Origin: Desulfuromonadales bacterium
GTDB lineage: Bacteria; Desulfobacterota; Desulfuromonadia; Desulfuromonadales; BM103
Assembly (NCBI GenBank): GCA_037383085.1
Contig: JARRPG010000001.1
Location: 53,422-117,421, forward strand
Direction: 5' to 3'
Length of the DNA: 64,000 nt
Shown here piece after piece: positions 17,857 through 34,390 of the stretch. Each line of letters starts with the position of its first letter. The first letter of the stretch is position 1. The translations under genes were made by a program, and so were the position numbers. The notes beneath the pieces were generated by a model. It was not told the origin of the DNA and made no database searches. It saw nothing but the letters and a program-made list of their open reading frames with translations.

Positions 17857-17887
17857 AAGGGGATGGCCATCACGTGGTCATCCCCTT
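17857..17887 (-). terminator. Terminator after the proline dehydrogenase gene
   Basis: On the minus strand: AAGGGGATG-13 nt loop-CATCCCCTT followed by TT(C). The 9-bp stem starts 24 nt after the stop. Confidence 0.55.
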
Positions 17888-17910
17888 CCCAATCCAGGCG
17901 TTTGTGACGC

Positions 17911-18825
17911 TTAAACCGACTTCCTTTTCATACCAAGCATCTGTCTCAGGGCGTGTTGGGCAATGCTCGGGTTCTCCTTCAGGCGGCGCTTCGAATAAGG
18001 CAGCCAGGATTTGCCGAAGGGCACATAAACCCGCAGGCGATGACCCTGGGCCACCAGCAGGTCGCGCAGTTCCGGGTCGACACCGAGCAGCATCTGAAAT
18101 TCATAGTCCTCGCGTTTCAGACCGTATTTCCGAATCAGTTGCAGCGACTCGAAGACCAGCTTTTCATCGTGCGTGGCAATGCCCACATAGGCCCCTTTTT
18201 CAAACATCAGGTCCAGGCAGCAGACAAAGCTGCGGTTGATGATTGCCATGTCCTTGTAGGCAATCTCGCGCGGCTCGTTGTAAATCCCCTTGCAGAGTCG
18301 GAAATGCAGCAGACCGTCACTTAAGGCTTCGATATCGGCGAGGGTGCGGCGCAGATACGACTGCAGCACCACGCCGACATGGCCGGGGAATTCCTCCCGC
18401 AGACGTCGGAAGAAGTCGAGGGTGTCGTCGGTACAGGGGTGATCTTCCATGTCGATCCGGACAAAATTGTTCCGTTCAGCTGCCAGCGTGACGATTTCGC
18501 GGATGTTTTCAAAAGCGAACTCCTTGTCGAGTTCGAGCCCCATCTGGGTCGGTTTCAACGACAGGTTGGCATCCAGCCCTTCCTTGTCGATGCCGCGCAG
18601 GATCTCCAGGCATTGATCCTTGAAATAGGTGGCTTCCTCTTTCGTTTTGATGAATTCACCGAGGATATCGATTGTCGCCATCATCCCTTTGCTGTTGAAA
18701 TCCCGGGTGACGGCGACCGCGTCCTTGAGTTCCTCGCCGGCGATGTACCCTTTGGCGAAGAGGCCGACGATCGGCCCGGGAACATGCATGATGGTTTTCG
18801 AGACAAGCAGATTGAACAGGGACAT
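17911..18825 (-). CDS. Proline dehydrogenase (monofunctional PRODH)
   Basis: TIM-barrel PRODH pattern (ATIDILGE..., VRIDMEDH..., VVLQSYLRRT, RLCKGIY, VGIATHD, FQMLLGV). The ATG at 18825 is preceded by GGAGG, which lies inside the GTG-extended ORF. Confidence 0.85.
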   Translation of the reverse strand: MSLFNLLVSKTIMHVPGPIVGLFAKGYIAGEELKDAVAVTRDFNSKGMMATIDILGEFIKTKEEATYFKDQCLEILRGIDKEGLDANLSLKPTQMGLELDKEFAFENIREIVTLAAERNNFVRIDMEDHPCTDDTLDFFRRLREEFPGHVGVVLQSYLRRTLADIEALSDGLLHFRLCKGIYNEPREIAYKDMAIINRSFVCCLDLMFEKGAYVGIATHDEKLVFESLQLIRKYGLKREDYEFQMLLGVDPELRDLLVAQGHRLRVYVPFGKSWLPYSKRRLKENPSIAQHALRQMLGMKRKSV

Positions 18826-18887
18826 GGCGTCCTCCACAAGGAAATGTTAAGGGTGGGCGGACAGCCAGCGCTGTCCGCCCCGCATTA

Positions 18888-20531
18888 TCACTCGGCGTCC
18901 ATGAACGGGTAGGCAAAGTCCGTCGGCGGCACGAAGGTCTCCTTGACGGTGCGCGGCGAGACCCAGCGCAGCAGGTTGGTGTAGGAACCGGCCTTGTCAT
19001 TGGTCCCGGAGGCACGCCCACCGCCGAAAGGCTGCTGGCCGACGACGGCGCCGGTCGGCTTGTCGTTGATGTAGAAATTGCCGGCAGCATTTTCGAGCTT
19101 GGCCATGGCCAGTGAAACCGCCATACGCTCGGTGGCGAAGACCGCACCCGTCAAGGCGTAGGGCGAGGTCCGGTCGCAGAGGTCCAGGGTTTCTTCGTAT
19201 TGGTCATCCTCATAGACGTAAAGGGTCAGCACCGGACCGAAGATCTCCTCTGCCATGGTGCGAAAGTCCGGGGTCTTGGCCAGGATCACGGTCGGCTCGA
19301 TGAAGTAGCCGGTGCTGTCATCGTAGTTGCCGCCGAGAATGATTTCCGCATCGTCGGACTGCTTGGCATCATCGATATAGGCCGTGATGTCCGCGAAGGC
19401 ACCTTTGTCGATGACCGCACTGAAGAAACAGGAGAAATCGTCGGTCGGCCCCATCTTGATGCGACCCACCTGATCCTCAAGGCCGGCGCGGACGTCGCTC
19501 CAGATCGACTGCGGAATGTAGGCGCGCGAAGCGGCCGAACATTTCTGACCCTGGTATTCGAAGGCCCCCCGGACCAGCGCGGTGACCAGCGCGTCGATGT
19601 CGGCGCTCTTGTGCGCAAAGACAAAGTCCTTGCCACCGGTCTCGCCGACGATCCGTGGATAGGACTTGTACTTGGCGATGTTGTTGCCGATCGTCTGCCA
19701 CATGTCCTGGAAGACCGCGGTGCTGCCGGTGAAATGCACCCCGGCAAATTCAGGACTGTCCATGCAGAGCGGTCCAACCACCGATCCCGGCCCCGGGACG
19801 AAGTTGATGACGCCATCGGGCAACCCGGCTTCCTGCAGGATCCTCATGAACAGGTAAGGAGTGTAGACGCAGGACGAAGCCGGCTTCCAGAGCGCCACGT
19901 TGCCCATGATCGCCGGCGCTGTCGGTAGGTTGCCGGCAATCGCGGTGAAATTGAACGGTGTCACGGCGAAGACGAATCCTTCCAGGGGCCGCTGCTGGAC
20001 GTAATTCCAGACGCCCTTCGAATTGTGCAGCGGCTGCTCCTGGTAGATCTGCTGGGCAAAGTAGACGTTGAAGCGCAGGAAATCGATCAGCTCGCAGGCG
20101 GCATCGATCTCTGCCTGAAAAGCGGTTTTGCCCGTCGAGAGCATGCTGCCGGCATTGATCAGGTAACGGTATTTGGTACTGAGCAGCTCGGCGGCCTTGA
20201 GAAAGATGCCGGCGCGTTCTTCCCAGCGCAGGGTCTTCCATTCCTGCTGGGCCGCGACGGCGGCATCGATCGCCATCTGCACTTCTTTCGGACCGGCCAT
20301 GTGATATTCGGCCAGCACATGCTGATGGTTGTGCGGCATCACCACTTTGCCGAGCTTACCGGTGCGGACCTCCTTGCCGCCGATGATCAGCGGGATCTCG
20401 ATTTTTTTGCCCTGGGTTTCGGCCAGAGCAGCCTTGAGTTTTTCCCGCTCCGGGCTGCCGGGGGCATAATTGTAAACCGGTTCGTTCTGTGGGAAAGGAA
20501 CCTTGATGGTGGCGTTGTTCACTAAGTTCAT
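18888..20531 (-). CDS. pruA: L-glutamate gamma-semialdehyde (delta-1-pyrroline-5-carboxylate) dehydrogenase
   Basis: 547 aa from the ATG at 20531 (GGGAG RBS). ALDH superfamily with the catalytic region ETGGKD / YQGQKCSAASR typical of P5CDH, and N-terminus MNLVNNATIKVPFPQNEPVYNYAPGSPER. Confidence 0.85.
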   Translation of the reverse strand: MNLVNNATIKVPFPQNEPVYNYAPGSPEREKLKAALAETQGKKIEIPLIIGGKEVRTGKLGKVVMPHNHQHVLAEYHMAGPKEVQMAIDAAVAAQQEWKTLRWEERAGIFLKAAELLSTKYRYLINAGSMLSTGKTAFQAEIDAACELIDFLRFNVYFAQQIYQEQPLHNSKGVWNYVQQRPLEGFVFAVTPFNFTAIAGNLPTAPAIMGNVALWKPASSCVYTPYLFMRILQEAGLPDGVINFVPGPGSVVGPLCMDSPEFAGVHFTGSTAVFQDMWQTIGNNIAKYKSYPRIVGETGGKDFVFAHKSADIDALVTALVRGAFEYQGQKCSAASRAYIPQSIWSDVRAGLEDQVGRIKMGPTDDFSCFFSAVIDKGAFADITAYIDDAKQSDDAEIILGGNYDDSTGYFIEPTVILAKTPDFRTMAEEIFGPVLTLYVYEDDQYEETLDLCDRTSPYALTGAVFATERMAVSLAMAKLENAAGNFYINDKPTGAVVGQQPFGGGRASGTNDKAGSYTNLLRWVSPRTVKETFVPPTDFAYPFMDAE

Positions 20532-20638
20532 GACGTCTCCCTTTCGTGTTAAGAGCCAATATCCTGTCGGATGATCGTGATCTGCATAGTCTTGCCGGTT
20601 GCTGAAAACCCGGCTCCATAATGCTGACAGACTGAATG

Positions 20639-20655
20639 AGCAAACAGGATGCCAA
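20639..20655 (-). promoter_or_regulatory. Sigma-54 (-24/-12) promoter for pruA and the proline dehydrogenase gene
   Basis: The minus strand reads TTGGCATCCTGTTTGCT, i.e. TGGCAT-N5-TTGCT with exact GG-to-GC spacing of 12. About 105 nt upstream of the pruA ATG. Confidence 0.75.
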
Positions 20656-20863: not shown

Positions 20864-20877
20864 ATGCAAATAGACAT
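20864..20877. promoter_or_regulatory. Candidate enhancer (UAS) site, ATGCAA-N5-CAT copy 1
   Basis: ATGCAAATAGACAT. Its centre is 218 bp upstream of the -24 GG of the pruA sigma-54 promoter. Confidence 0.45.
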
Positions 20878-20936: not shown

Positions 20937-20950
20937 ATGCAAAAAAACAT
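20937..20950. promoter_or_regulatory. Candidate enhancer (UAS) site, ATGCAA-N5-CAT copy 2
   Basis: ATGCAAAAAAACAT, 73 bp from copy 1 (about 7 helical turns). Confidence 0.35.
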
Positions 20951-20991
20951 GTAGGCTCTTGACCCGAACAATTAATGCGTTTTCGCATCAA

Positions 20992-21906
20992 TCAGCCTCC
21001 TACCGTGGCCCGCAAGCCATGCTCACCGAACACCCGGATCGCCCGCTCGAGACCTTCCGGACCCGGTTCGTGGATGGCGTGCAGATCGCGATGCTGCCCC
21101 AGCTTGGCATCTTTGCCTCGAGCCACATCATGATAGGGAAGCAGGTTCACCGCCTTGCGCGAACCGGCCAGACCGGCCACAAAATCGGCGATCCCGGCCA
21201 GGTTCTCGGCATCATCATTGACACCACCGAGCAGGGGCACACGCACCTGAATCGCGACACCGGTCGCGGCCAGGGCCTCGAGGTTGTTGAGAATCAGCGA
21301 ATTATCGACCCCGGTGTAGCGGCGATGCCGGTCGGTGTCGATCAGCTTCAGGTCATAGAGGAAAAGGTCGGCATGCCGGGCCACCTCGAGCAGGGTCGCG
21401 GTTTTGACATAGCCTGAGGTGTCAATAGCGCGGTGAATGCCGCGCGCACCGCAGCGGTCAAGGAGTTCGATCAGAAAATCCGGATAAAGCAAGGGCTCGC
21501 CGCCCGAGAACGTCACCCCCCCAGCGGACTGATCGAAAAAAGGCCGCTCCTTTTCGATCACAGCCAGGATCTCTTCGACGGCCATCGGCCGCCCCGAAAT
21601 TTCCGTCGCCAGGGCCGGACAGGCGGCTGCGCAGGCACCGCAGAGAGTACACACCGCGTGATCGGTGACCACCCCCTCGGCGTTGAGCTCACAGGCCTGT
21701 CGGGGACAGACCCGGCAACACTCCCGGCAGCCGATGCACTTGGCCGCGGTGAAGAGCTTCTGCGGGCGGGCGGAAATGCTTTCGGGGTTGTGACACCACT
21801 GGCAATTCAGCGGACAGCCCTTGAAGAAGACCGTGACGCGAATGCCCGGACCGTCGTTGATCGCGTAACGCTTGATATCGAAGATGAGGGGCTCTTGCAT
21901 GATCAC
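20992..21906 (-). CDS. Glycyl-radical enzyme activating protein (radical SAM, with ferredoxin-like insert)
   Basis: CPLNCQWCHNPE (the CxxxCxxC radical-SAM cluster) plus two extra Cys clusters, CIGCRECCRVCP and CTLCGACAAACP. The GGEPLL SAM motif is present. The start is ambiguous (GTG at 21906 or ATG at 21900). Confidence 0.9.
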   Translation of the reverse strand: MIMQEPLIFDIKRYAINDGPGIRVTVFFKGCPLNCQWCHNPESISARPQKLFTAAKCIGCRECCRVCPRQACELNAEGVVTDHAVCTLCGACAAACPALATEISGRPMAVEEILAVIEKERPFFDQSAGGVTFSGGEPLLYPDFLIELLDRCGARGIHRAIDTSGYVKTATLLEVARHADLFLYDLKLIDTDRHRRYTGVDNSLILNNLEALAATGVAIQVRVPLLGGVNDDAENLAGIADFVAGLAGSRKAVNLLPYHDVARGKDAKLGQHRDLHAIHEPGPEGLERAIRVFGEHGLRATVGG

Positions 21907-21922: not shown

Positions 21923-22077
21923 TTAACGCAAAGACGCAAAGGCGCCAAGTTTAGCAATCACATGAAAACACTTAAAACACTTAACACGATAGGCACGCCA
22001 AAATCCCTCACAACAACTCTAACCAAAAGGCCTTGAAGTTCCTATCAGCCCTTAGCGTCTTTGCGCCTTTGCGTTAA
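21923..22077. repeat. 155-bp REP/MITE-like element bounded by 23-nt inverted repeats, between the GRE and its activase
   Basis: Left arm TTAACGCAAAGACGCAAAGGCGC. Right arm GCGTCTTTGCGCCTTTGCGTTAA. The arms pair over 23 positions with one mismatch and one G-U wobble. There is an internal tandem AACACTTAA x2. Confidence 0.6.
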
Positions 22078-22080: not shown

Positions 22081-24531
22081 TTAAAAAGATTCGTTCTCGG
22101 TCCGTTCGATCACTTCCTGCTGCAGGTCGGCGTTCATGTCGTTGAAGTAATCGCTGTAACCGGCCATGCGCACCAGCAGGTCCTTGTAATCTTCCGGGGT
22201 CTCCTGCGCCGCCTTGAGGGTTGCCGTGTCGACGATATTGAACTGGATGTGGTGGCCCCCCAGATTGAAGTAGCTGCGAATCAGTTGGCCAAGCCGGGTG
22301 ATGTCCTCGTCGCGTTTGAGCAGACTCGGCAGAAAACGTTGGTTGAGCAGCGTTCCGCCCGACAGGGTATGGTCCAGCTTGGTCAGGGAACGAATCACCG
22401 CCGAAGGCCCATGAGTGTCCGCTCCATGGGACGGTGAGGTGCCGTCGGAAATCGACTTGCCGGCCAGCCGGCCGTTCGGGGTCGCCCCGGTGACCTTGCC
22501 GAAATAGATATGACAGGTCGTCGAGAGCATGTTGAGATGGAAACTCTCCCCCTTGATGTTCGGCTTGCCGTCGATCGCCTGCAGCAGGTCCCGGTAGATC
22601 TGCAGGGCGATGTCGTCGGCATAGTCGTCGTCGTTGCCAAAAAACGGTGTCTTGTTGAGCACGGTCTGGCGCAGGAACGCATCTTCGGCAAAATTGTCGG
22701 CAAGAGCCTTCAGGAGGCGTTCCATGCTGAAGGTCTGCGCCTCGAAAACATGTTTTTTCAGGACCGCGAGGCTATCGGTGGTCGTCCCCAGCCCGGTGCA
22801 CTGGATATAGTTGGTGTTGTAACGCGGTCCGGCATCGTAATAATCCCGTCCCTTGCTGATGCAGTCCTCGATCACGACGGACAGGAAAGGGGCCGGAGCG
22901 TACTTGGCGAACATGCGGTCAATGTAGTTGCTGACCCGAATCTTGGTGTCGACAATAAAATTCAGCTGGCGCCGAAAGGCGTCGTAAAGCGCCTCGAAGG
23001 AGGTAAACTGGCGCGGGTCGCCGGTCTCCATGCCGGCCTTTTTGCCGGTGACCGGATCGGTCCCGTTGTTGAGGGTGATCTCGAGAATCTTCGGCACGTT
23101 CAGGTAACCGGTCAGGATGTAGGCTTCCTTGCCGAAGGCGCCGACCTCGATGCAACCACTGCAGCCCCCCTCGCGCGCATCCTGCAGCGACTTGCCCTGG
23201 CGCAGCAACTCGAGAACGTAGACATCGGGATTGAAAACCGACGGGTAACCATGGCCCTGGCGAATCACCCGACAGGCCGCCTCCAGAAAGCGGTCGGGCG
23301 TCTTGCTGCTGACGTGCGCCGAGTTGCCGGGCTGCAGGATATGCAACTCCTCGACTACCTCGAGCATCAGATAAGACACCTCGCTGACCCCGTCCTTGCC
23401 ATCGCCGGTGATGCCGCCGATGTTGATGTTGGTAAAGTCGTTGTAGGTGCCGCTTTCCCGTGCCGTGATGCCGACCTTGGGCGGCGCCGGATGGTTGTTG
23501 ACCTTGATCCAGAAGCAGCAGAGCAACTCCTTGGCCTGCTCGCGCGTCAAGGTTCCGGCGGCGATCTCCGCCCTGTAGAACGGGGCCAGGTGCTGGTCGA
23601 AATGGCCCGGATTCATGGCATCCCAACCGTTCAGTTCCGTGATCGTACCGAGGTGCACGAACCAGTACATCTGGATCGCTTCGTGAAAGGTCTGCGGCGC
23701 ATGGGCCGGAACCCGGCGGCAGACTTCGGCGATCGTCCGCAGCTCGGCGGCGCGCTGCGGATTTTGTTCATCAGCGGCCCGTTGTTCGGCCAACGCGGCA
23801 TGCCGCTCGGCAAAGAGGATCACGGCGTCACAGGAGACATCCATGGCCCGCAATTCTTCGAGCTTGTCGGTCGCTTCCGGGTCGTTGAGAAAATCCAGGC
23901 GAACGATCTGGTCGGCGATCTGCCGCTTGAAGTCGCGCATTCCCAGACGGTAGATCTTGCCGTCCAGGGCGGTATGCCCGGGGGCCCGCTGCTCCATGAA
24001 TTCGGTGAACAAACCGGCCTCATAGGCCGCCTGCCACTCCGCAGGAACATGGTTGAAGATGCGCTCGCGAATCGTCCGGCCCTGCCAGAAGGGGATCACT
24101 TCGCGGGCATAAATGGCGATATCCTCCTCGCTGATCGTATAACGCTGCTGCTCACGGCTGTTGAGGACGCGAAAGTCTTCCACGCTGTGACAGGTCAGCT
24201 CGGGGAAGGTCGGCACCGCTTTCGGCCGCGGCCCGCGTTCGCCGACAATCAGCTCATCCTCACCGATGTAGATCGTTTTCCTGCGACAGTGATCGAGGAA
24301 GTTCAGAGCGCGCAGCATCGGCGTTGAATACTTGCCGTCATTCTCCCGGTAGAAGGCGGTCTCATGAAGCGCACGCTCGATCGACAGGCTCGGTTCGGTT
24401 TCGACGCTCAGCTTGCGCAGACGCTGGATACGGGCATTCATACCGGGCCCGATCGGATTGGGTTTGGAGGGATAAAAATTGCCTTCACTGGCCGCTTTGC
24501 GCTGCGGCATCGCTGTTGTTTCCAGGGTCAT
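22081..24531 (-). CDS. hypD: Glycyl radical enzyme, PFL2/eliminase family; best fit is trans-4-hydroxy-L-proline dehydratase (HypD-like)
   Basis: C-terminal glycyl-radical motif VRMAGYSDYF and Cys loop SGCIEVG. Motifs FTEFMEQRAPGHT, ELNGWDA, KVGITARESGTYNDF and AYILTGY contain F178, H186, D304, S360, F366, C460, E462 and Y476. These all sit at a constant +26 offset from the HypD active-site residues I recall (F152, H160, D278, S334, F340, C434, E436, Y450). The start is uncertain (ATG at 24531, 24510 or 24441). Confidence 0.8.
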   Translation of the reverse strand: MTLETTAMPQRKAASEGNFYPSKPNPIGPGMNARIQRLRKLSVETEPSLSIERALHETAFYRENDGKYSTPMLRALNFLDHCRRKTIYIGEDELIVGERGPRPKAVPTFPELTCHSVEDFRVLNSREQQRYTISEEDIAIYAREVIPFWQGRTIRERIFNHVPAEWQAAYEAGLFTEFMEQRAPGHTALDGKIYRLGMRDFKRQIADQIVRLDFLNDPEATDKLEELRAMDVSCDAVILFAERHAALAEQRAADEQNPQRAAELRTIAEVCRRVPAHAPQTFHEAIQMYWFVHLGTITELNGWDAMNPGHFDQHLAPFYRAEIAAGTLTREQAKELLCCFWIKVNNHPAPPKVGITARESGTYNDFTNINIGGITGDGKDGVSEVSYLMLEVVEELHILQPGNSAHVSSKTPDRFLEAACRVIRQGHGYPSVFNPDVYVLELLRQGKSLQDAREGGCSGCIEVGAFGKEAYILTGYLNVPKILEITLNNGTDPVTGKKAGMETGDPRQFTSFEALYDAFRRQLNFIVDTKIRVSNYIDRMFAKYAPAPFLSVVIEDCISKGRDYYDAGPRYNTNYIQCTGLGTTTDSLAVLKKHVFEAQTFSMERLLKALADNFAEDAFLRQTVLNKTPFFGNDDDYADDIALQIYRDLLQAIDGKPNIKGESFHLNMLSTTCHIYFGKVTGATPNGRLAGKSISDGTSPSHGADTHGPSAVIRSLTKLDHTLSGGTLLNQRFLPSLLKRDEDITRLGQLIRSYFNLGGHHIQFNIVDTATLKAAQETPEDYKDLLVRMAGYSDYFNDMNADLQQEVIERTENESF

Positions 24532-24628: not shown

Positions 24629-24868
24629 CAGGCGGACCGTTGAACCGCCTGAAAAGATTCCACCTGGTCACAGAATTGAGCAAGAAGGATACCAAAGCGA
24701 TGTTTTCTGAAGATATTTACAAGAGCTTGAAATCAAAGCCTTTTAAGTAACGGAAGCGGAAATTTCGCGGGCGGCCGCCGGAGGATTGCTATTCACTGCA
24801 GAATCGATAATTCAGGAAGGAATAAATCGGCCCCTGGCCATGACGCGCAAGAGCTTTCTGATCAGAGT

Positions 24869-25207
24869 TCAACCCAGCTTGGCGCCGTTCGGCACCGGTC
24901 GTTCGGGAATCGCTATGACGACGGAATTGTCGTCGCGATAAAAACCGGTCAGCAGGAACTCGGAGCGCATCGGCCCGATCTGTTTGGGTGGGAAATTGAC
25001 CACACCGATGATCTGCCGGCCGACCAATTCCTCCCGGTTGTAGTGCACCGTAATCTGCGCACTGGCCCTGAGAACACCGATTTCGGTGCCGAAATCAGCG
25101 GTGACGATATAGGCCGGCTTGCGCGCTTGCGGGAAGTCCTCGACTGCGAGGACTGTTCCGACCCGCAACTCGACGGCGGCAAAATCCTGCCAGGAGATGT
25201 TCTGCAT
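24869..25207 (-). CDS. CsaA/YgjH-like tRNA-binding (OB-fold) domain protein
   Basis: [33 protein letters not shown]...[19 protein letters not shown] is the tRNA_bind/CsaA signature. The ATG at 25207 has a GGAG RBS. Confidence 0.75.
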
Positions 25208-25220: not shown

Positions 25221-26657
25221 CTAGCTTTTTTGCGCATCGGTGCTGCGGTATTTGATCCCGTACTTATGGAGTTTACGCGCCACGGTCGGCTGGCTCATGC
25301 CGAGAGCCCGGGCGATCGCCTGCTGCCTGTGATGGTGCTTGCTGACCTCGGTCAGGACGCGCTTTTCCACCGCCTCGAGAATCTGGGTCATGGTCATATT
25401 TTCGGGGCAGGCGTTCAAGGGCAGGCCCGTGCCGTCGTCCACCGCGGCCAACACATCCTGCGGCAGGTCGCTGCTATCGATCACCTCGGTGTCCGTCATC
25501 ACCACCAGGCGTTCACAGATGTTCATCAACTCACGCACGTTGCCGGGATAATCGTATTGCACCAGCGTGTCGAAGGCTGCGGTCGTCAGTCGCTTGGTGG
25601 TTTTGGCGCGGCTGGAAAAGTAATCCAGGTAACTGCGGATCAGCGGCACCAGGCATTCCCGGCGTTCGCGCAGTGGCGGGACCCGGAGCGGCACGACGCT
25701 CAGCCGGTAATAGAGGTCGGCACGGAACTCTTTGCGCTCCACCAGGGCATCCAGATCGCGATTGGTCGCCGCCAGGACGCGCACGTCGAAGCGTTGGCTT
25801 CGGGTCGCCCCCAACCGGGTGACCGCACCATCTTCCAAAAAGCGCAGCAACTTGACCTGTGAGGCCAGCGGCAGCTCGGCAATTTCATCGAGAAACAAGG
25901 TCCCGCCGGCAGCCAGCTCGAATTGCCCGGGCTTGCTGCTCGTCGCCCCGGTGAAGGCGCCGCGCTCGTAACCGAACAACTCGGCTTCGATCAAGGTCTC
26001 CGGAATCGCCCCGCAATTGATCTTGATCAGGGGACGCCCGGAACGGCCCGAGTTCTCATGGATCATATCGGCGATCAGCCCCTTGCCAACGCCCGATTCA
26101 CCAAGGATCAAAACGGTCGAATCGACCTCACTGACCTTGAGCGCCTGGCGGATCGCCTTGACCATGCAGGGACTTCTGGCAATCATCGGCTGCTCGGCAA
26201 ACCGTTCCTGCTGCAATTCCAGGATCTGATGCCGATAGCGATCACCGATCGCCTGCTGCTCCTCGAGCTGCCGCTGCAAACGATCGATTTCGGTGATATC
26301 GCGCTCGCTGACGACCACCCGGATGAGATCGCCGGCATCATCGAATACCGGCGTGGCGGTCGAGATGAGTTTGCGACCGAAGCGATTCTCCTGCAGCAGG
26401 CTGACCGGACTGCGATTTTTGATCGCTTCCAGGGCCGCGGAGGGCAAAATCAGCAACCCCTCCTGGGCGGCGTCGAGGTAGTCGCGGCCGATCAACTGGG
26501 CGGCGGAGGCATGATTGATGCGTTCCGATGCCGGGTTGACACGCAAGATGCGACCGCTGCCGTCACAGACGAACAAGCCGTCGGAGGACGAATCGATGAT
26601 GGCATCATGCTCCCAAGTCAGTTCCTGGGTTGGCCTGTCCATAGGTTGTTCCTTCAA
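25221..26657 (-). CDS. Sigma-54-dependent transcriptional activator (PAS - AAA+ - Fis-type HTH), here called EBP1
   Basis: PAS ([13 protein letters not shown]...VNPASERI). AAA+ with Walker A GESGVGKG, the GAFTGA sigma-54 contact loop, and [14 protein letters not shown]-terminal [27 protein letters not shown]. Confidence 0.9.
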
Positions 26658-26664: not shown

Positions 26665-27474
26665 TCAATGAGACATCAACACCGGCACGGTCATGAACTC
26701 CAGCAGATACCGACCGACATCACCCAGCGTTTGCTGCCCGCGCCGCGACTGGGCAAAAGCCCCCATGATCAGCAGATCGATCCCTTCGTCGGCGCAGCGG
26801 TTGAGCAACAGGTCCCCGACATGCAGGTCTCCGCTGACATGTTTCTCGCCCATCGCTTTGATCCCATAGTGGACCAGGTGTCGACAGATATCGGCATTGT
26901 GCGCTTTGTACGATTCGTCACCACCGGTTCCCTGAACGGTGAGAACCTTGACTCGTTCTGCCCGCGTCAGAAACGGCAGACCGTCATGCAGGGCCCGGGA
27001 CGATTCCGGCCCGCCACGCCAGGCCAGCATGATCTGCTTGCCGAGCGTGGCAAACGTGCCGGCATAAGGCACAATCAGAACAGGTCGACCAGCGCCGAGC
27101 ACGGCGCGCTCCGGAAGATCGGGAGGAATCGTGCGATCCGGATTGCTCAGATCGGTCTGGCTGATGACCAGCAAGTCATGGTAATGGGCATACAGGCTGA
27201 TGGTCTGGGACAGTTCGAGCCCGCTTTGCTGACTGTCGACGCAGATCCATTCGGAATCGACTCCGGCGTCACGGGCAGCGCCTTCGAAGGCCGCCCTCGC
27301 CTCTGCGACAAGCTCCAGCGTATCGGCATTTTGCGCGGCAAAATACGGATGCGGAATGACATAGAGACCGGTCAGACGGGCCTGGTGCTGCTGCGCAACC
27401 TGGAGGGCGACGGCCAGGCGCGATCGGCAGGTGGGCCGGTTGTTGATGTGCACCAGAATATCCTTGAAGTTCAT
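26665..27474 (-). CDS. Tandem universal stress protein (UspA family)
   Basis: 269 aa, two Usp domains (ILVHINN...DLLVIS...PVLIVP and ...IDLLIMGAF...VPVLMSH). Only 7 nt separate it from the EBP1 start. Confidence 0.8.
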   Translation of the reverse strand: MNFKDILVHINNRPTCRSRLAVALQVAQQHQARLTGLYVIPHPYFAAQNADTLELVAEARAAFEGAARDAGVDSEWICVDSQQSGLELSQTISLYAHYHDLLVISQTDLSNPDRTIPPDLPERAVLGAGRPVLIVPYAGTFATLGKQIMLAWRGGPESSRALHDGLPFLTRAERVKVLTVQGTGGDESYKAHNADICRHLVHYGIKAMGEKHVSGDLHVGDLLLNRCADEGIDLLIMGAFAQSRRGQQTLGDVGRYLLEFMTVPVLMSH

Positions 27475-27534: not shown

Positions 27535-28263
27535 CTACTGCTTTTTGCCGAGGTAGGCCTCCTGGACTTTTTCCGAGGCCAGCAGTTCGGCGGACGTTCC
27601 GGAGAGGGCGATTTTACCGACATCGAGTACATAACCACGGTCGGCCAGCTTGAGTGCCGCCTTGGCATTCTGCTCCACCAGCAAAACCGTGACACCGCTG
27701 TCGGCCACCTCTTTGATCTGTTTGAAAATGGCCTTGACCAGAATCGGCGCAATGCCAAGGGACGGCTCGTCCAGCAGCAGCATCTCCGGGTTGCACATCA
27801 GGGCCCGGCCGATCGCCAGCATCTGCTGTTCACCGCCCGAGAGCGTTCCCGCCAATTGCTTGCGTCGCTCTTCGAGCCGCGGGAAGAGGTCGTACACCCA
27901 TTGCAGGGTTTTGCGATCGACCTTGCTGCGGCTGAAAGCCCCGAGCATTAGGTTCTCCTCGACGGTGAGGATGCCGAACACCCGGCGGCCCTCGGGGGAA
28001 TGACTGATGCCCAGTTTGACGATCTTATGTGCCGGCATTTGGGTCAATTCGTGGCCCTTGAACATGATCGAGCCGGACTTGGCCTTGAGCAGCTGGCTGA
28101 TGGTGCGCATGGTGGTGGTCTTTCCCGCCCCGTTGGCACCGAGGATGGTAACGATTTCACCCTTGCGGACTTCGAGCGAGATCCCCTTGATGGCGGCAAT
28201 GCTGCCGTAGGATACCTCGAGATCCTTGATTTCGAACAAGACATCCTTATTCATCATCGTCAT
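27535..28263 (-). CDS. livF: Branched-chain/hydrophobic amino-acid ABC transporter ATP-binding protein (LivF-like)
   Basis: Walker A GANGAGKTT, signature LSGGEQQML, Walker B LLLDEPS. Confidence 0.88.
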   Translation of the reverse strand: MTMMNKDVLFEIKDLEVSYGSIAAIKGISLEVRKGEIVTILGANGAGKTTTMRTISQLLKAKSGSIMFKGHELTQMPAHKIVKLGISHSPEGRRVFGILTVEENLMLGAFSRSKVDRKTLQWVYDLFPRLEERRKQLAGTLSGGEQQMLAIGRALMCNPEMLLLDEPSLGIAPILVKAIFKQIKEVADSGVTVLLVEQNAKAALKLADRGYVLDVGKIALSGTSAELLASEKVQEAYLGKKQ

Positions 28264-29026
28264 CCTCGCTTCCCAGGTAGGCTTCGATCACGGCCGGGTT
28301 CTTCTGGATTTCTTCCGGTGTGCCCTCGGCGATCGTCTTGCCGAAATTCAGAACCGTCAGATAATCGGTCACTTCCATGACCATGTCCATGTCATGTTCG
28401 ATCAGCAGAATGGTGACCCCACGGTCGCGGATCTTGAAAATCGTCTCCAGCAGATCCAGGGTCTCCTTGTCGTTCAGCCCCGCCGCCGGTTCGTCAAGAA
28501 TCAACAGGGTGGGGTCAACCGCCATCGCCCGGGCCATTTCGACTCGCCGTTGAATGCCGTAAGGCAGACTGGCCACCGGCGTCGCGGCGAACTCGCTCAG
28601 ACTGAAGAAGTCCAGCTGTTCGGCGACCTTCTGCCAATTCTCGCGTTCGTCCCGCTTCGAACCGGGCGTATGGACAATGCCGTGCCACCAGCCCTGCTTA
28701 CTCTTGATATGGCGGCCGCTCATGATGTTTTCCGCCACCGACATCTGGCTGAAGAGGCGAATCGTCTGGAAGGTGCGGACGATGCCACGGTCAACGATCT
28801 GGTAGGGGGTCAGGCCGCGAATCTCCTCACCGCGCCATTTGACCGAGCCCTCCTCGGACTTGTAGATGCCGGTAATACAGTTGAACACGGTCGTCTTGCC
28901 GGCACCGTTGGGGCCAATAATGCCGTAGATCTGGCCTTCCTTGACCTCCAGGTTGAGGGTGTCGACAGCGGTCAGACCACCAAAGCGTTTGGTGACATCG
29001 GTCAGAATCAGTTGATTAGGCGCCAT
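28247..29026 (-). CDS. livG: Amino-acid ABC transporter ATP-binding protein (LivG-like)
   Basis: GPNGAGKTT, LPYGIQRRVEMARAM, LLILDEPAAG. Overlaps livF by 17 nt. Confidence 0.88.
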   Translation of the reverse strand: MAPNQLILTDVTKRFGGLTAVDTLNLEVKEGQIYGIIGPNGAGKTTVFNCITGIYKSEEGSVKWRGEEIRGLTPYQIVDRGIVRTFQTIRLFSQMSVAENIMSGRHIKSKQGWWHGIVHTPGSKRDERENWQKVAEQLDFFSLSEFAATPVASLPYGIQRRVEMARAMAVDPTLLILDEPAAGLNDKETLDLLETIFKIRDRGVTILLIEHDMDMVMEVTDYLTVLNFGKTIAEGTPEEIQKNPAVIEAYLGSEDDDDE

Positions 29027-29972
29027 GGTTCGCTTCCTTGATCAAGAATTTGGGAATTTTGCCGAAGGTTGCCGGCCAGATGCCGCGCGGCCGCAGAATC
29101 ATCGCCAGGATCATGGCAAACCCGAAGATGAAAAATCGCCAGGTGGCAAACTCGCGGAAGATCTCCGGCAGAACGAACATGACGAACACCCCGAGCAGGA
29201 TTCCCGGGATCGAGGAGCCGCCGACCAGGACAATACTGAAGAACAGCACCGACTGGATAAACTCGAAGGCCTCTGGACTGACGGCCGCATACTGGGTGGC
29301 GTAGACGGTCCCCGCCAGGCCGGCGATGCCGGCCCCGAGGCCGAAGGCGAAGATCTTGTAGACCCGGGTATTGATGCCGATACTTTCGGCGGCCAGAAAA
29401 TCCTCCCGCAGGTAATGCAAAGCCCGACCGGCCTTGCTCTTTTCCAGATTGCGCATCACCCAGAGCGTCACCAGCATGACGACGAAGGCGAAGTAGTAGA
29501 CCGCCACCTGGCTGGTCAGCTGCCAGCCGAAAAAAGACAAGGGATCGAGACCGAAAATGCCGTTCGGGCCGCCGGTCACCCCACCGAGATTGTTCTGCAG
29601 AACCTGGACGAAGACGATATTGAAACCGATCGTCACCACCAGCAGATAATCGCCGCGCAGGTGGACGATCGGTCCGGCCAGCAGGATGCCGAAGAGTGCC
29701 GGGATCAGGATCGCCAGGGGCACCGTCGCCAGGATCGGCCAGCCGAACTGATGGTTGAGAATCGCCGTGATATAGGCGCCCATGCCGAAGAAGAGCGCCT
29801 GTCCCATGTTGAACATGCCGGCCTTGCCGAGAATGATGTCCTGGGACAGGGCCACCACGGTGAAGATCAGAAAGGTGATCGCCACCGCCTGCCAGCGTGG
29901 ATTGAGCAGATGCGGCAATACCGCCATGACCACCAGAAAAATCGGCAACGCATAGGGTTGTAGTTTTTTCAT
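29016..29972 (-). CDS. livM: Amino-acid ABC transporter permease (LivM-like)
   Basis: 318 aa polytopic protein with the LivM-type sequence GQALFFGMGAYITA. Confidence 0.85.
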   Translation of the reverse strand: MKKLQPYALPIFLVVMAVLPHLLNPRWQAVAITFLIFTVVALSQDIILGKAGMFNMGQALFFGMGAYITAILNHQFGWPILATVPLAILIPALFGILLAGPIVHLRGDYLLVVTIGFNIVFVQVLQNNLGGVTGGPNGIFGLDPLSFFGWQLTSQVAVYYFAFVVMLVTLWVMRNLEKSKAGRALHYLREDFLAAESIGINTRVYKIFAFGLGAGIAGLAGTVYATQYAAVSPEAFEFIQSVLFFSIVLVGGSSIPGILLGVFVMFVLPEIFREFATWRFFIFGFAMILAMILRPRGIWPATFGKIPKFLIKEANHGA

Positions 29973-31063: not shown

Positions 31064-32182
31064 TTACTGCACATACTCCTGAGCGTAGGAGCCGTCGGCC
31101 TGGATCTTCTTGACCACGTAGGCGCCGCCGATGCGGTTGCCGTCCTTGGCAAAGGCAATCGGTCCGGTAATACCGTCGATCGGCTCCATGCTATGCAGGT
31201 AATCGGCGACGGCCTTGGTATCGAAGCTCTTGGTCTGCTCGATGCCATAGATGAAGGCACGCATGCCGTCGATATTCATCAAACCCCAGATAGAGGGCGG
31301 CATTTCACCATATTTTGCCTGGTAGTCGGCGATGAAGGTTTTGGCGATCTCGTAGGGCAGCGCGTCCGGCGAAGGCACGTTGATAATGTAGGCCCCTTCC
31401 GCAGCGGAGCCGGCCAGCTTGACGAAATCCGGGTTGTCATTAGCGTCACCACCGATGAAATCAGCATTGATGCCGAGCGCTTTCTGCTGGGCGCGCAGCT
31501 GGCCACCGTCGGAGTAGTAACCGGCAAAGAAGATCACATCCGGGTTCTTGGACTTAATGTTGGTCAGCACCGGCGTGAAATTCTGCGAATCGGCTTTGAT
31601 CTTGTCACGCGAGACGACATTGCCGCCGAGCTTCTTGATCGCTTCCTCGGTGGCATTGCCGAGACCATCAGCGTAGGTCGAGAAATCGGACAGGACCACA
31701 ATGCGCTTGTAGCCTTTGACCTTGACCATGTACTCGGCGGCGAATTGGGCTTCGGCGCTGTTCGGGAAGGAGTTGCGGAAGAAGGTCCAATAGCCTTTTT
31801 CGGTCAGCGCATCAGCCGTGCCGTCTGAAGTCTGCAGGACACCGGCATCAAAATAGGTTTTTTGTGCGGCTTCGGCGCAGGTCGATGTGTAGGAGCCGAT
31901 CACCATCGTGACCCCCTTGTTGACCAGGTCCTTGGCACAGATGGCCGCAGCCATGGCGGTTCCCTGGTCATCACAGGTGATGACTTCGATCTGCTTGCCC
32001 AGCACGCCGCCGTTGGCGTTGACCTGCCCGGCGAGCAGCTTGACGCCATTGTCGATGCCTTGTCCTTCGTTGGCATAGCTGCCGGTAATCGGTGCCTGGA
32101 CACCGACCTTCAGGGTGTCAGCAGCGAATACCGTACCGGTAGCGAACAACACGGCCAGAAATGTTGCCAGATACTTTTTCAT
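31064..32182 (-). CDS. livK: Periplasmic amino-acid-binding protein (LivK/Peripla_BP_6 family)
   Basis: Signal peptide MKKYLATFLAVLFATGTVFA, then LKVGVQAPITGSYANEGQG...GGVLGKQIEV...DDQG. Confidence 0.88.
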   Translation of the reverse strand: MKKYLATFLAVLFATGTVFAADTLKVGVQAPITGSYANEGQGIDNGVKLLAGQVNANGGVLGKQIEVITCDDQGTAMAAAICAKDLVNKGVTMVIGSYTSTCAEAAQKTYFDAGVLQTSDGTADALTEKGYWTFFRNSFPNSAEAQFAAEYMVKVKGYKRIVVLSDFSTYADGLGNATEEAIKKLGGNVVSRDKIKADSQNFTPVLTNIKSKNPDVIFFAGYYSDGGQLRAQQKALGINADFIGGDANDNPDFVKLAGSAAEGAYIINVPSPDALPYEIAKTFIADYQAKYGEMPPSIWGLMNIDGMRAFIYGIEQTKSFDTKAVADYLHSMEPIDGITGPIAFAKDGNRIGGAYVVKKIQADGSYAQEYVQ

Positions 32183-32326: not shown

Positions 32327-32342
32327 AGCAAAGCTAATGCCA
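32327..32342 (-). promoter_or_regulatory. Sigma-54 (-24/-12) promoter for the liv-type operon
   Basis: The minus strand reads TGGCATTAGCTTTGCT (TGGCAT-N5-TTGCT, exact spacing). About 145 nt upstream of the livK ATG. Confidence 0.75.
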
Positions 32343-32552
32343 AACTGCGTTTTATTTTCTTTCGAACACCGATCGCAATCATGAGAAGAACTTCTCAAAG
32401 ACCCAAAAAGAAAATTTTTACTTTTTATTTTCAGCACTTTGGAGAATTTTAAAGGGTTGCGGACGGGCACAGACCTGAGGTCCTCTTCGGCCTTTCTCGG
32501 CGGCCGGCCTGTTTCCGCTCTCAGGCCACAAACGCCTCCGGCACGATCCGCC

Positions 32553-32566
32553 ATGCAAGACTGCAT
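32553..32566. promoter_or_regulatory. Candidate enhancer (UAS) palindrome, an ATGCAA-N5-CAT copy
   Basis: ATGCAAGACTGCAT (arms ATGCA/TGCAT). Its centre is 219 bp upstream of the -24 GG of the liv promoter. Confidence 0.45.
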
Positions 32567-32584
32567 AAAGATGGCGAAGAGCCC

Positions 32585-34327
32585 TCACAGGCCATAACGT
32601 TTCAGCTTGCGGGCCACGGTGGACTGGTTGATACCCAGGGCGGCCGCAATATCGGCCTGGTTGCGATAACGCTCACGGGCCTTGGCCAGCAAGTTCCGCT
32701 CGACCGCTTCGACCGCCTGCTGCAGGGTGGTCGCCTCCGGCCAGTCGAGACGGGACTCCCGACCGGCAGAGGTGGTGCCAGCGACCTGCGTCGGCAGATC
32801 AGCCAGGTCGATCATCTCGGTGTCCGACATCACGACGACCCGTTCGCAGATATTCATCAACTCCCGGACGTTGCCCGGAAAGGAATAGTGAACCAGGGCA
32901 TCGATGGCAGCCCGGGACAGGCGTTTCTTCTCCTGGTTGATGGCGGCAAAATGGTCGATGTAGTGACGAATCAGCGGCACCAGACAATCTTTACGCTCGC
33001 GCAGGGCGGGAACGTGAATCGGAATGACATTCAGCCGGTCGTAAAGATCCAGTCGAAAGGTTCCCTTCTCGACCATGTCCTCCAGGTCGCGATGGGTCGC
33101 AGCCAGCACCCGCACATCGACCTGGCGTTCCTCGGTGCCGCCAAGCCGGGTGATGTGACCGTCTTCGAGGAAACGCAGCAGCTTGACCTGGGCGGACAGC
33201 GGCAGCTCGGCGATCTCGTCCAGGAACAGGATCCCTTCGTTGGCCAGTTCGAACTGACCCGGCTTGCCCCCCGGGCTGGCACCGGTAAACGCCCCTTTCT
33301 CATAGCCGAAGAGTTCCGCCTCGATCAACGATTCCGGAATCGCCCCGCAGTTGATTTTGATCAGTGGCCGGCCGGCCCGCGCCGAATTCTGGTGGATCAT
33401 CTCTGCGATGACCCCTTTGCCAACTCCCGATTCACCGAGAATCAGCACTGACGAATCGGCCGATGCCACCTTGATGGCCTGACGCAGCGATTTGATCATG
33501 TTCGGGCTGCGCGCGATGATTTTTCGTTTGTCGAGTTCAACCTGCTGCATTTCCAGCATCTGGTTGCGAAACTGGTCCTTGATCGCTTCCTGGTTTTCCA
33601 GTTCGCGCTGCAGCTTGTCGATCTCGGTAATGTCGCGTTCACTGACCACGACCCTGATCAGTTCTCCGCTCTGGTCGAAGACCGGCGTGCCGATGGAGAT
33701 CAGTTTGCGGCCATTGGGCATGTTCTGCAAAAGGCTCACGGTGGTCTTCTCCTGACACGCCTCGAGTGCCGCTGAGCGATCGATAAAACCTTCTTCGATC
33801 AGTTCCCGCATGTTGCGCCCGACCAGTTCCGCCGCAGAGCGTTGATGAATTTTTTCCGAGGCCGGGTTAACCCGAATGACATTGGCGTCACTGTCACAAA
33901 CGAACAGGCCGTCCGAGGACGAATCGATAATGGCATGCAGCTCCAGGGTCAAGGCTTCGAAGTCGAGCATGCGGCGATCTACATCGGGCGGCGACGGTGC
34001 CGGCGGCAGCAGGCAGAGCGTCAGAACACGGCCGTCCGGCGCCTTGACGGTACTCAACATCGCCAAATAGGGAGCGCTGGCACCGCGCAGGATGGTCAGG
34101 GGCGGGTTGGCCGCCGCGCTGCGACGGAAATGATCCATGCTTTCGGCCAGTTTCGGCATGAATTGCCGCAGCGGTTTCTGCAGAGCGATCTGCAACTGTT
34201 TGTCGGCAGCTTCATTGGCATAAACCAGGCGGCCGTCGTCATCGCAAACCAGCAGCGGCACCGCCAGGGCGGACAGAAAGATGGGGGCCAGCGAGGGGAC
34301 ATTCTGCGGGGGGAGGGGCTCGGGCAT
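32585..34327 (-). CDS. Sigma-54-dependent transcriptional activator (2x PAS - AAA+ - Fis HTH), here called EBP2, a paralogue of EBP1
   Basis: [21 protein letters not shown], and C-terminal HTH ADIAAALGINQSTVARKLKRYGL. The PAS core [28 protein letters not shown] is nearly identical to EBP1. Start at the ATG at 34327 with an AAGGAG RBS. Confidence 0.9.
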   Translation of the reverse strand: MPEPLPPQNVPSLAPIFLSALAVPLLVCDDDGRLVYANEAADKQLQIALQKPLRQFMPKLAESMDHFRRSAAANPPLTILRGASAPYLAMLSTVKAPDGRVLTLCLLPPAPSPPDVDRRMLDFEALTLELHAIIDSSSDGLFVCDSDANVIRVNPASEKIHQRSAAELVGRNMRELIEEGFIDRSAALEACQEKTTVSLLQNMPNGRKLISIGTPVFDQSGELIRVVVSERDITEIDKLQRELENQEAIKDQFRNQMLEMQQVELDKRKIIARSPNMIKSLRQAIKVASADSSVLILGESGVGKGVIAEMIHQNSARAGRPLIKINCGAIPESLIEAELFGYEKGAFTGASPGGKPGQFELANEGILFLDEIAELPLSAQVKLLRFLEDGHITRLGGTEERQVDVRVLAATHRDLEDMVEKGTFRLDLYDRLNVIPIHVPALRERKDCLVPLIRHYIDHFAAINQEKKRLSRAAIDALVHYSFPGNVRELMNICERVVVMSDTEMIDLADLPTQVAGTTSAGRESRLDWPEATTLQQAVEAVERNLLAKARERYRNQADIAAALGINQSTVARKLKRYGL

Positions 34328-34357
34328 GGGCAATCTCCTTGTCAGAGGCTCCATCTT

Positions 34358-34390
34358 ATGCGGAACTGCATTATTTATGCAACAAGGAAT
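34358..34390. promoter_or_regulatory. Two further ATGC(A/G)(A/G)-N5-(C/A)AT motif copies in the EBP2 promoter/leader
   Basis: ATGCGGAACTGCAT (34358..34371) and ATGCAACAAGGAAT (34377..34390). On the minus strand they overlap a possible TTGCAT-N18-TAAGAT sigma-70 promoter. Confidence 0.4.

Follow-up and report, generated by a model that had tools for sequence, protein, structure and literature searches.

A composite sigma-54-controlled locus predicted to link hydroxyproline and proline oxidation in a Desulfuromonadales bacterium

INTRODUCTION

In its characterized context, in clostridia, the glycyl radical enzyme (GRE) HypD is paired with delta-1-pyrroline-5-carboxylate (P5C) reductase (PMC6219649; PMC12899673). 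Here, we describe a locus in a 64-kb stretch of a Desulfuromonadales contig (JARRPG010000001.1; this whole stretch is called the window below) where hypD and its activase gene adjoin genes for P5C dehydrogenase (P5CDH) and proline dehydrogenase (PRODH). The locus, hereafter the island, is a fusion of two gene modules, and its sequence indicates that it is probably a composite, sigma-54-controlled locus for the anaerobic catabolism of Hyp (trans-4-hydroxy-L-proline) and L-proline to L-glutamate.

The clostridial HypD-ProC system (C. difficile; Levin et al. 2017; PMC6219649; PMC7077986) resembles the island in its first step, its enzyme family and its adjacent radical SAM activase. The island differs in having no adjacent proC, in its P5C being predicted to be oxidized by P5CDH instead of reduced, and in the presence of a PRODH. 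Its transport genes encode a LivK-type ABC importer together with MOP-fold and EamA proteins, and its host lineage is known for respiring anaerobes, not fermenters. A further likeness lies in PrdR, the NCBIfam-named sigma-54 activator of the proline reductase genes of C. difficile, which is the best model for both enhancer-binding proteins (EBPs) of the island.

An oxidative fate of P5C has been raised before: in Oscillibacter valericigenes, a dehydrogenase encoded near HypD was taken, in one sentence and from gene context, to suggest conversion of P5C to glutamate (Huang et al. 2018, PMC6219649). Compared with that locus, the island adds PRODH, an ABC importer, two EBPs, three sigma-54 promoters and three transporters, and it represents a recurrent fusion of two modules. 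Thermus/Bacillus-type put genes and PutA share with the island the combination of PRODH and P5CDH and the conversion of proline to glutamate, the island's enzymes being encoded by adjacent separate genes. Unlike these systems, the island uses sigma-54 and PAS-domain EBPs instead of PutR or PutA autoregulation, has a LivK-type ABC importer instead of PutP, and is fused to HypD. Other Hyp catabolism, which enters the 2-oxoglutarate/glutamate node, shares the purpose of using Hyp as a source of carbon and nitrogen, but its chemistry is different and its enzymes are absent from the window; the route predicted for the island is oxygen-free.

Collagen and the glycoproteins of plants and algae contain hydroxyproline as a major component, and the Desulfuromonadales are best known as sulfur- and metal-respiring anaerobes. 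To our knowledge, only two anaerobic fates of Hyp have been characterized: its reduction to proline, which feeds Stickland fermentation, and the C-N lyase route of HplG. As ecological background only, one paper reports Geopsychrobacteraceae metagenome-assembled genomes with a gelatin-hydrolysis trait on marine bone.

All enzyme families of the island are thus known, and the oxidative route was suggested by Huang et al. 2018. What is new is the modular fusion, the two-site sigma-54 design, the MOP and EamA partners of HypD, and the predicted oxidation of Hyp in Desulfuromonadales. An initial reading of the window from its letters alone (the sequence-only reading) had known of no characterization of the arrangement as a unit. 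This stands insofar as our literature search, with subscription journals mostly outside it, found no characterization of a HypD-P5CDH-PRODH unit, of Hyp use in Desulfuromonadales or of a sigma-54-dependent put module in Geobacter relatives; the route itself, as noted, had already been suggested from gene context. A 2026 review of GREs lists the HypD chemistry, and its 10 passages on HypD or hydroxyproline contain no oxidative downstream route.

RESULTS AND DISCUSSION

A HypD-clade enzyme

We surveyed the window by open reading frame (ORF) listing combined with Pfam and NCBIfam scans. Gene starts were refined by alignment to the orthologs of one relative, L006 (L numbers denote the loci of relatives), which gave 34327 for EBP2, 30868 for livH, 26642 for EBP1, 25207 for the tRNA_bind gene, 21900 for the activase and 18825 for PRODH. 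The P5CDH start, 20531, came from sequence inspection: its ATG has GGGAGA ahead of it, and the resulting 547 aa equal the length of the orthologs in L005, L006 and L088. The mechanically called ORFs were overlong for EBP2 (to 34432) and P5CDH (to 20726). The catabolic genes are as follows.

22081..24531, minus strand: GRE (hypD), NF043068 equivalog with a match to PDB 6VXC
20992..21900, minus strand: GRE-activating radical SAM enzyme (302 aa), TIGR02494 at 329 bits (cut-off 174)
18888..20531, minus strand: P5C (L-glutamate gamma-semialdehyde) dehydrogenase (547 aa), TIGR01236 at 793.7 bits (cut-off 613.6)
17911..18825, minus strand: monofunctional proline dehydrogenase (304 aa), Pfam Pro_dh PF01619 at 106.9 bits (cut-off 27)

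The GRE scored 1171.3 bits against the HypD equivalog NF043068 (cut-off 1100), the next NCBIfam equivalog being HpsG at 550. Among solved structures, it matched C. difficile HypD (6VXC) at 966 bits, compared with 496 for CutC, 486 for glycerol dehydratase, ~399 for HpyG and HpzG, and 385 for HplG. The alignment to 6VXC runs without gaps at 51% identity over the whole length. Thirteen of the 14 residues checked are identical (F152, R156, H160, D278, K326, S334, D339, F340, C434, E436, Y450, T645 and G765), among them all 10 found important by mutagenesis (PMC7077986); the sole difference is V435, the X of the CXE motif, which is Ile in the window enzyme. The glycyl radical site, for which the pattern is RVxGYS, reads RMAGYS here, with G791, and the CXE motif of the Cys loop reads C460-I461-E462; the counterparts in the C. 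difficile enzyme are G765, C434 and E436. In that enzyme, S334, Y450 and T645 hold the carboxylate (PMC7077986). Because the NF043068 score, the structure scores and the residue identities agree, the enzyme falls in the HypD clade and not with HplG, HpyG, HpzG, the diol dehydratases or IslA, in keeping with its earlier description as HypD-like. Judged by these comparisons it is a true HypD, and HypD activity is predicted for it.

We also considered that the GRE might act on another hydroxyproline isomer, on an N-methylated derivative (as with HplG, HpyG and HpzG) or on a small polar substrate. The clade may handle several isomers, since two relatives (L005, L007) carry Pro_racemase and other isomer genes. 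In addition, the activase, whose best equivalog is the HypD activase model NF043069, reaches 339 bits where the cut-off is 425. The GRE itself, however, passes the HypD equivalog cut-off, scores 966 bits against HypD and 385-399 against HplG, HpyG and HpzG, and is identical to C. difficile HypD at the checked binding and catalytic positions (S334, Y450, T645, D278, D339, H160). A different substrate is therefore very improbable.

The P5CDH-PRODH cassette and the predicted route to glutamate

P5CDH and PRODH follow the activase gene, and PRODH scores 244 bits against the Thermus-type model NF045947, below its cut-off of 500. Two further features frame the pair.

17857..17887, minus strand: GC-rich hairpin with a U4 tail past PRODH, candidate intrinsic terminator or attenuator closing the P5CDH-PRODH cassette
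48623-49447, minus strand: proC, the only proC in the window

The hairpin, which the sequence-only reading had called a terminator, proved real: it folds at -28.1 kcal/mol (z = -3.6), ends in UUUU, and is kept in L005 and L006, where its counterpart has a U5 tail and changed stem bases. A stricter terminator scan did not list the hairpin at 17857-17887, which has only four U residues. With its own sigma-54 promoter, three upstream sites and the hairpin, the P5CDH-PRODH pair looks like a self-contained cassette. As had been noted, proC lies ~24 kb from hypD among unrelated neighbors, and P5CDH and PRODH are adjacent to hypD instead. The Pfam survey of the window returned no proline reductase (prd) genes.

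In the proposed pathway, HypD, activated by the adjacent radical SAM activase, would dehydrate Hyp to P5C; PRODH would oxidize proline into the same P5C pool and deliver the electrons to the quinone pool; and an NAD-dependent P5CDH would oxidize P5C, as glutamate semialdehyde, to glutamate for entry into central metabolism. The LivKHMGF importer would bring in proline most likely, and possibly Hyp too, and the MOP-fold protein and two EamA proteins would provide transport linked to HypD. Expression would depend on three sigma-54 promoters, with ATGC-N6-GCAT sites at livK, P5CDH-PRODH and EBP2 and TGAATA/TATTCA sites at hypD. The substrates named here and induction by them are predictions, and we infer coupling to respiration from the lineage only; no cytochrome genes were identified within the window. 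The oxidative route from Hyp and proline through P5C to glutamate had been predicted at the outset. The identity of HypD and its pairing with P5CDH, judged by sequence and by comparison among genomes, favor that prediction; the anatomy that went with it has to be recast as a fusion of two modules.

Fusion of a put module and a HypD module

ORF, Pfam and NCBIfam analyses confirmed the gene set and order first read from the letters, all on the minus strand: EBP2, livKHMGF, a universal stress protein (Usp) gene, EBP1, a CsaA-like gene (tRNA_bind), the GRE, the activase, P5CDH and PRODH. The lower end, initially placed at 17857, was wrong: three further minus-strand genes, for a MOP-fold protein and two EamA proteins, extend the island by ~3.2 kb, to ~14638. 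To place this arrangement among relatives, we read gene neighborhoods on 11 contigs and scored 80 species-representative HypD loci by tblastn with the window proteins.

This comparison revealed that the island is a fusion of a put module and a HypD module that are usually apart in Desulfuromonadales. The put module consists of an EBP, P5CDH, PRODH, LivKHMGF, Usp and an EBP; the HypD module consists of hypD, the activase (AE), the MOP-fold protein and one or two EamA proteins. Stand-alone HypD modules occur in L001, L003, L004, L009, L011, L091 and L092, with no P5CDH, PRODH or ABC genes within 10 kb, and their lineages include Malonomonas, Geothermobacter, Desulfuromusa and Geopsychrobacteraceae. 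The put module is found as EBP-P5CDH-PRODH-LivKHMGF-EBP, followed farther on by tRNA_bind and with proC just upstream, in Geothermobacter hydrogeniphilus (L088), and as EBP-P5CDH-PRODH-LivKHMGF-Usp-EBP in Pelovirga terrestris (L090). On the basis of the neighborhoods in L088, L089 (described with the importer below) and L090, the importer, Usp, both EBPs and the tRNA_bind gene can be assigned ancestrally to the put module.

Fused loci come in more than one order. The window reads EBP2-LivKHMGF-Usp-EBP1-tRNA_bind-HypD-AE-P5CDH-PRODH-MOP-EamA-EamA, and L006 is identical through the first EamA, as far as it was read. L012 reads EBP-P5CDH-PRODH-LivKHMGF-Usp-HypD-AE-MOP-EamA-EamA. L005 and L007 share EBP-tRNA_bind-HypD-AE-P5CDH, which continues in L005 with PRODH-MOP-EamA-EamA; the L007 contig stops within P5CDH. 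The gene set therefore recurs in at least four other Desulfuromonadales genomes (L005, L006, L007 and L012), once in another order, and this recurrence argues for a functional link and for the oxidative route from Hyp and proline through P5C to glutamate. In the window, the P5CDH-PRODH cassette interrupts the HypD module, with the activase gene on one side of it and the MOP gene on the other. We propose a history in which a put module was joined to a HypD module of the form hypD-AE-MOP-EamA-EamA, leaving the cassette in its present position.

We weighed this reading against one in which the two modules are unrelated neighbors brought together by rearrangement, the put module serving proline only and the P5C made by HypD passing through a distal ProC to proline for biosynthesis, osmoprotection or a reductive, Stickland-like use. 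In favor of that reading, the modules are separate in most relatives, the hypD and P5CDH-PRODH promoters are separate and have upstream sites of different types, and a proC gene is present in the window, with another beside the put module in Geothermobacter L088. Against it, the gene set has been joined in at least two orders (window and L006 versus L012), and in the window the put cassette splits the HypD module at the activase-MOP junction. Three other lineages also have P5CDH within 10 kb of HypD, two of them directly upstream of it. Even on that reading, proline made from Hyp would be re-oxidized by the adjacent PRODH, so that the net route to glutamate would be unchanged, and the lack of prd genes in the window's Pfam survey also speaks against a reductive end. 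Overall, we consider chance adjacency unlikely.

The wider neighborhood survey places the fusion in perspective. The 80 loci are the closest matches to the window HypD (66-87% identity) and lie outside the clostridial part of the HypD family. Among them, P5CDH occurs within 10 kb of HypD in the Desulfuromonadales subclade and in L019, L073, L085 and L087. It is directly upstream of HypD in Coraliomargarita (Verrucomicrobiota, L019), which also has a divergent proC and an OCD gene nearby, and in a "Lysobacterales" metagenome-assembled genome (L073); in the Muribaculaceae loci L085 and L087, it lies 2-3 kb upstream. PRODH is found near HypD in Desulforhopalus (L044). The oxidative HypD-P5CDH pairing is thus recurrent, arose more than once, and is a minority arrangement. 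In only 2 of the closest 80 loci does proC lie within 10 kb of HypD.

Several observations weigh against the proposed oxidative system. Most of the closest 80 HypD loci, largely from Bacteroidota, have neither P5CDH nor PRODH nor proC within 10 kb. In 7 of ~12 Desulfuromonadales genomes examined, HypD does not adjoin P5CDH or PRODH; the linkage is therefore clade-specific, and the fusion could be neutral. Neither the activase, nor PRODH, nor either EBP reaches the cut-off of its best NCBIfam equivalog. The hairpin past PRODH bears on how the MOP and EamA genes downstream of it are transcribed. In addition, members of the MOP and EamA families are known mainly for export, which makes a role in Hyp uptake uncertain.

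If the oxidative reading is correct, a HypD-P5CDH route in this order would tie the breakdown of animal and algal protein in anoxic sediments to the cycling of iron and sulfur. It would also explain why most HypD genomes have no adjacent proC, a point that Huang et al. 2018 did not settle. The prediction lends itself directly to testing in cultured relatives: the HypD module is present in Malonomonas rubra DSM 5091 and in Geothermobacter species, and the put module in Geothermobacter hydrogeniphilus and in Pelovirga terrestris. A more ambitious version would hold that a Desulfuromonadales subclade assembled a system for respiring collagen imino acids, in which the EBPs tell Hyp from proline through the two site types and the MOP protein and two DMT proteins form a new uptake system for Hyp or Hyp peptides; it would then be the first oxidative, respiration-coupled HypD pathway. 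We put this version forward as speculation and regard it as doubtful.

Two of the fused loci bear a further variation. In L005 (428-7560) and L007 (359-7555), from the metagenome-assembled genomes GCA_024641085 and GCA_024640545, the importer is swapped for hydroxyproline-isomer genes directly ahead of EBP-tRNA_bind-HypD. The replacements encode a short-chain dehydrogenase, an aldo-keto reductase, a serine-dehydratase-like protein, an OCD/mu-crystallin protein, AcnX (two subunits) and a member of the Pro_racemase family. In work by Watanabe and colleagues, the AcnX, OCD/mu-crystallin and Pro_racemase families are reported to include cis-3-hydroxy-L-proline dehydratase, Pyr2C reductase and hydroxyproline epimerase/3-Hyp dehydratase. 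The variant looks like a combined 3- and 4-hydroxyproline locus, and its product, proline, would need PRODH.

Sigma-54 promoters and two types of upstream site

The pattern TGGYAY-N5-TTGCW has four matches in the 64 kb, compared with 0.33 expected, and none of 100 shuffles reached four. Three of the matches are exact promoters in intergenic regions of the island, and both EBPs carry GAFTGA and Walker A motifs, which bears out the view of the island as sigma-54-wired. The regulators, promoters and candidate sites are listed below.

32585..34327, minus strand: EBP2 (PAS-AAA+-HTH, 580 aa), Pfam Sigma54_activat at 225 bits, PAS and HTH_50, with GAFTGA at residue 345
25221..26642, minus strand: EBP1 (PAS-AAA+-HTH, 473 aa), Pfam Sigma54_activat at 224 bits, with GAFTGA
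32327..32342, minus strand: sigma-54 -24/-12 promoter of livKHMGF-usp(-EBP1), TGGCATTAGCTTTGCT, kept in L006 and L008
24679..24694, minus strand: sigma-54 -24/-12 promoter of hypD, TGGTATCCTTCTTGCT, exact consensus
20639..20654, minus strand: sigma-54 -24/-12 promoter of P5CDH-PRODH, TGGCATCCTGTTTGCT, kept in L005, L006 and L007
34358..34371, minus strand: ATGC-N6-GCAT palindrome, ATGCAGTTCCGCAT, candidate autoregulatory EBP site 31 bp ahead of the EBP2 start
32553..32566, minus strand: ATGC-N6-GCAT palindrome, ATGCAGTCTTGCAT, candidate upstream activating sequence of livK, matched by a like site in the equivalent place in L006 and L008
20864..20988, minus strand: three ATGY-N6-GCAT palindromes (20975-20988, 20937-20950 and 20864-20877) within AT-rich sequence, candidate upstream activating sequence of the put genes
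24789..24814, minus strand: TGAAT...ATTC...TGAATA repeat, candidate upstream activating sequence of hypD; aligned block TGAATAA-N-TTATTCA..AATGAATAA

Both EBPs contain Sigma54_activat, AAA_lid_14 and HTH_50/HTH_8 domains, GAFTGA, and the Walker A motif GESGVGK. The best NCBIfam model for both is PrdR (NF041552), at 356 bits for EBP1 and 402 bits for EBP2 with a cut-off of 795; by these scores they resemble PrdR without being members of that family.

Two types of upstream site could be distinguished. The ATGC-N6-GCAT motif has 16 strand-hits in the window, compared with 5.6 expected, and also occurs just ahead of an EBP2-like gene in Pelovirga (L090). The three ATGY-N6-GCAT sites ahead of P5CDH-PRODH stand in register in four genomes (window, L005, L006 and L007). 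The hypD upstream motif differs from these put/liv sites: TGAATA/TATTCA elements lie ~75-135 nt ahead of the hypD -24/-12 promoter in L001, L003, L005-L008, L011 and L013. The position of the promoter itself is kept in these eight further loci, and in Malonomonas and Geothermobacter it is present with no EBP nearby.

This arrangement would be consistent with two regulons under two regulators, EBP2 acting on the ATGC sites and EBP1 on the hypD sites. Because there are two types of upstream site at three promoters, it further suggests that the two PrdR-like PAS-EBPs sense proline and hydroxyproline separately. The pair of paralogous EBPs, the two types of site and the three promoters make the island a clean test case for regulation.

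The LivKHMGF importer and its companions

The put module contributes a complete importer, a stress protein and a small protein with a tRNA_bind domain.

31064..32182, minus strand: LivK/LivJ-type periplasmic binding protein (372 aa), Pfam Peripla_BP_6 at 212 bits
29972-30868, minus strand: livH, permease, BPD_transp_2, NCBIfam LivH best but below cut-off
29016-29972, minus strand: livM, permease, BPD_transp_2, NCBIfam LivM best but below cut-off
28247-29026, minus strand: livG, ATPase, ABC_tran
27535-28263, minus strand: livF, ATPase, ABC_tran
26665..27474, minus strand: tandem Usp (269 aa), Pfam Usp in two stretches
24869..25207, minus strand: tRNA_bind protein (YgjH/CsaA-like, 112 aa), Pfam tRNA_bind, NF007493 at 172.6 bits (cut-off 160)

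All five parts of a HAAT/LIV-I importer are present: a type I substrate-binding protein, two BPD_transp_2 permeases and two ATPases, one of them with BCA_ABC_TP_C. The best NCBIfam model for the LivK-like protein is LivJ/K, below cut-off, and its best PDB match is E. coli LivJ (135 bits). Orthologs of this protein (74-86% identity) adjoin PRODH and P5CDH or lie near PutA in three further genomes (L088, L089 and L090). Because the importer tracks proline-oxidation genes and not HypD, proline is most likely its ligand, better supported by these neighborhoods than Hyp, or perhaps both are. The earlier proposal of LivK as a receptor for Hyp and proline thus gains on proline and is weakened on Hyp, as the importer follows put genes where HypD is elsewhere.

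The importer might instead be a general branched-chain or broad-range system with no tie to proline or Hyp, co-regulated under sigma-54 for nitrogen or amino-acid scavenging. Its best family and structure matches are indeed LivJ/LivK and LivH/LivM, source annotations read "branched-chain amino acid ABC transporter", and ligand specificity is unreadable from sequence. Against a general role stand the neighborhoods of the orthologs just described, and sites of the ATGC-N6-GCAT type precede both the livK and the P5CDH-PRODH promoters. The binding pocket points the same way, to a ligand other than Leu, Ile or Val. At the positions that we take to be the ligand contacts of LivJ, the backbone contacts S79, T102, Y150 and Y202 are kept and E226 is replaced by D in a distant alignment (~25-30% identity). 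In the side-chain pocket, Y18->E, L77->Y, C78->T, A100->D and A101->G replacements, read at the same identity, make several positions polar, which is a lead and decides no specificity. On balance, a general importer seems somewhat unlikely, and a proline importer remains our preferred reading.

A marine contig (ERR1726541 k127_653377, L089, 1-14637) bears a related grouping: LivKHMGF (82-88% identity) by a GntR regulator, a bifunctional PutA and a HypD-like GRE (69%). The LivK-type protein of this locus carries the NCBI name Desulfogranum marinum. L089 is a separate co-occurrence of importer, proline oxidation and HypD under a different type of regulator.

The tandem Usp occupies the same position in L006, L008, L010, L012 and L090. 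A tRNA_bind protein is also encoded near the EBP1 ortholog in Geothermobacter L088 (17362-17697), with no HypD adjacent.

MOP-fold and EamA proteins as partners of HypD

Three genes downstream of PRODH complete the island.

16480..17802, minus strand: MOP-fold membrane protein (440 aa), assigned by AlphaFold2 and Foldseek
15552-16469, minus strand: EamA (DMT-family) transporter, Pfam EamA twice
14638-15546, minus strand: EamA (DMT-family) transporter, Pfam EamA twice

Sequence searches of Pfam, NCBIfam and the PDB gave no match for the 440-aa protein. Its AlphaFold2 model (pLDDT 90.5, pTM 0.86) retrieved MATE, MurJ or WzxE structures as all of its top 50 Foldseek matches (probability 1.0, TM 0.6-0.75, 13-18% identity), so that the protein is predicted to carry a MOP-superfamily (MATE/MurJ-like) fold. 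It shares this predicted fold with the MATE/MurJ/Wzx transporters but not their sequence families, and it differs from them in its synteny with an amino-acid catabolic enzyme; we know of no such context for the MOP superfamily. In one relative, the counterpart has a weak Pfam MatE match. For the EamA proteins, the best NCBIfam models describe carboxylate/amino-acid/amine transporters and YddG-like amino-acid exporters, and none of them reaches its cut-off.

A MOP gene and at least one EamA gene lie downstream of the activase in every Desulfuromonadales relative whose contig reaches that far. The MOP gene follows the activase in L001, L003, L004, L009, L011, L012, L091 and L092, and in relatives it is itself followed by the EamA pair. 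The MOP and EamA proteins are accordingly the transporters that accompany HypD, and they may import Hyp or export a product. This conserved gene context points to a role for the 440-aa protein despite the lack of a family match, and if the role is import, it would be the first in amino-acid import for the MOP superfamily.

The 17803-17856 spacer, inspected by eye, showed no promoter from which the MOP and EamA genes might be read. The activase and MOP genes of Malonomonas rubra (L001) have a second exact sigma-54 promoter between them (14082-14097), with an ATGC-N6-GCAT site at 13918; there, the transporter genes appear to have their own sigma-54 promoter.

Other features and insertions at the hypD-activase junction

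An Rfam search of 14000-35000 at E <= 0.1 gave no match, and hence no known riboswitch or leader. The fourth sigma-54 match in the window (11206-11221, plus strand) lies inside the 5' coding part of an ActP/MctC-like symporter ORF (11060-12988) and was dropped from the island; possible explanations are coincidence and a wrongly annotated symporter start. That ORF was also considered as a PutP proline carrier and rejected, as it scores 418 bits as ActP/MctC-like and 74 as PutP.

Directly ahead of hypD, where the window and L005-L007 have tRNA_bind, stand-alone modules encode a protein of 126-149 aa. It had no Pfam match in the loci scanned (L003, L004, L008 and L010).

L003, 9294-9743: small pre-hypD protein
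L004, 9498-9878: small pre-hypD protein
L008, 9231-9632: small pre-hypD protein
L010, 7537-7932: small pre-hypD protein
L091, 9356-9736: small pre-hypD protein
L092, 9230-9679: small pre-hypD protein

The spacer between hypD and the activase gene is occupied by one further element.

21925..22075, no strand: palindromic element (151 bp) with ~21-bp terminal inverted repeats (AACGCAAAGGCGCAAAGACGC and its near-complement)

The element folds at -62 kcal/mol (z = -4.7), and both repeat arms were located; the window holds no second copy, and Rfam gave no match. Because hypD and the activase gene are only 1-2 nt apart in L005, L006 and L007, the element looks inserted, and it is probably a small palindromic (MITE/REP-like) element outside the pathway. 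In L091, an insertion sequence (HTH_Tnp_1 and rve integrase; 12884-13965) lies between hypD and the activase gene, with a second transposase copy at the edge of the locus. Taken with the window's palindromic element, this points to a hypD-activase junction that readily receives insertions.

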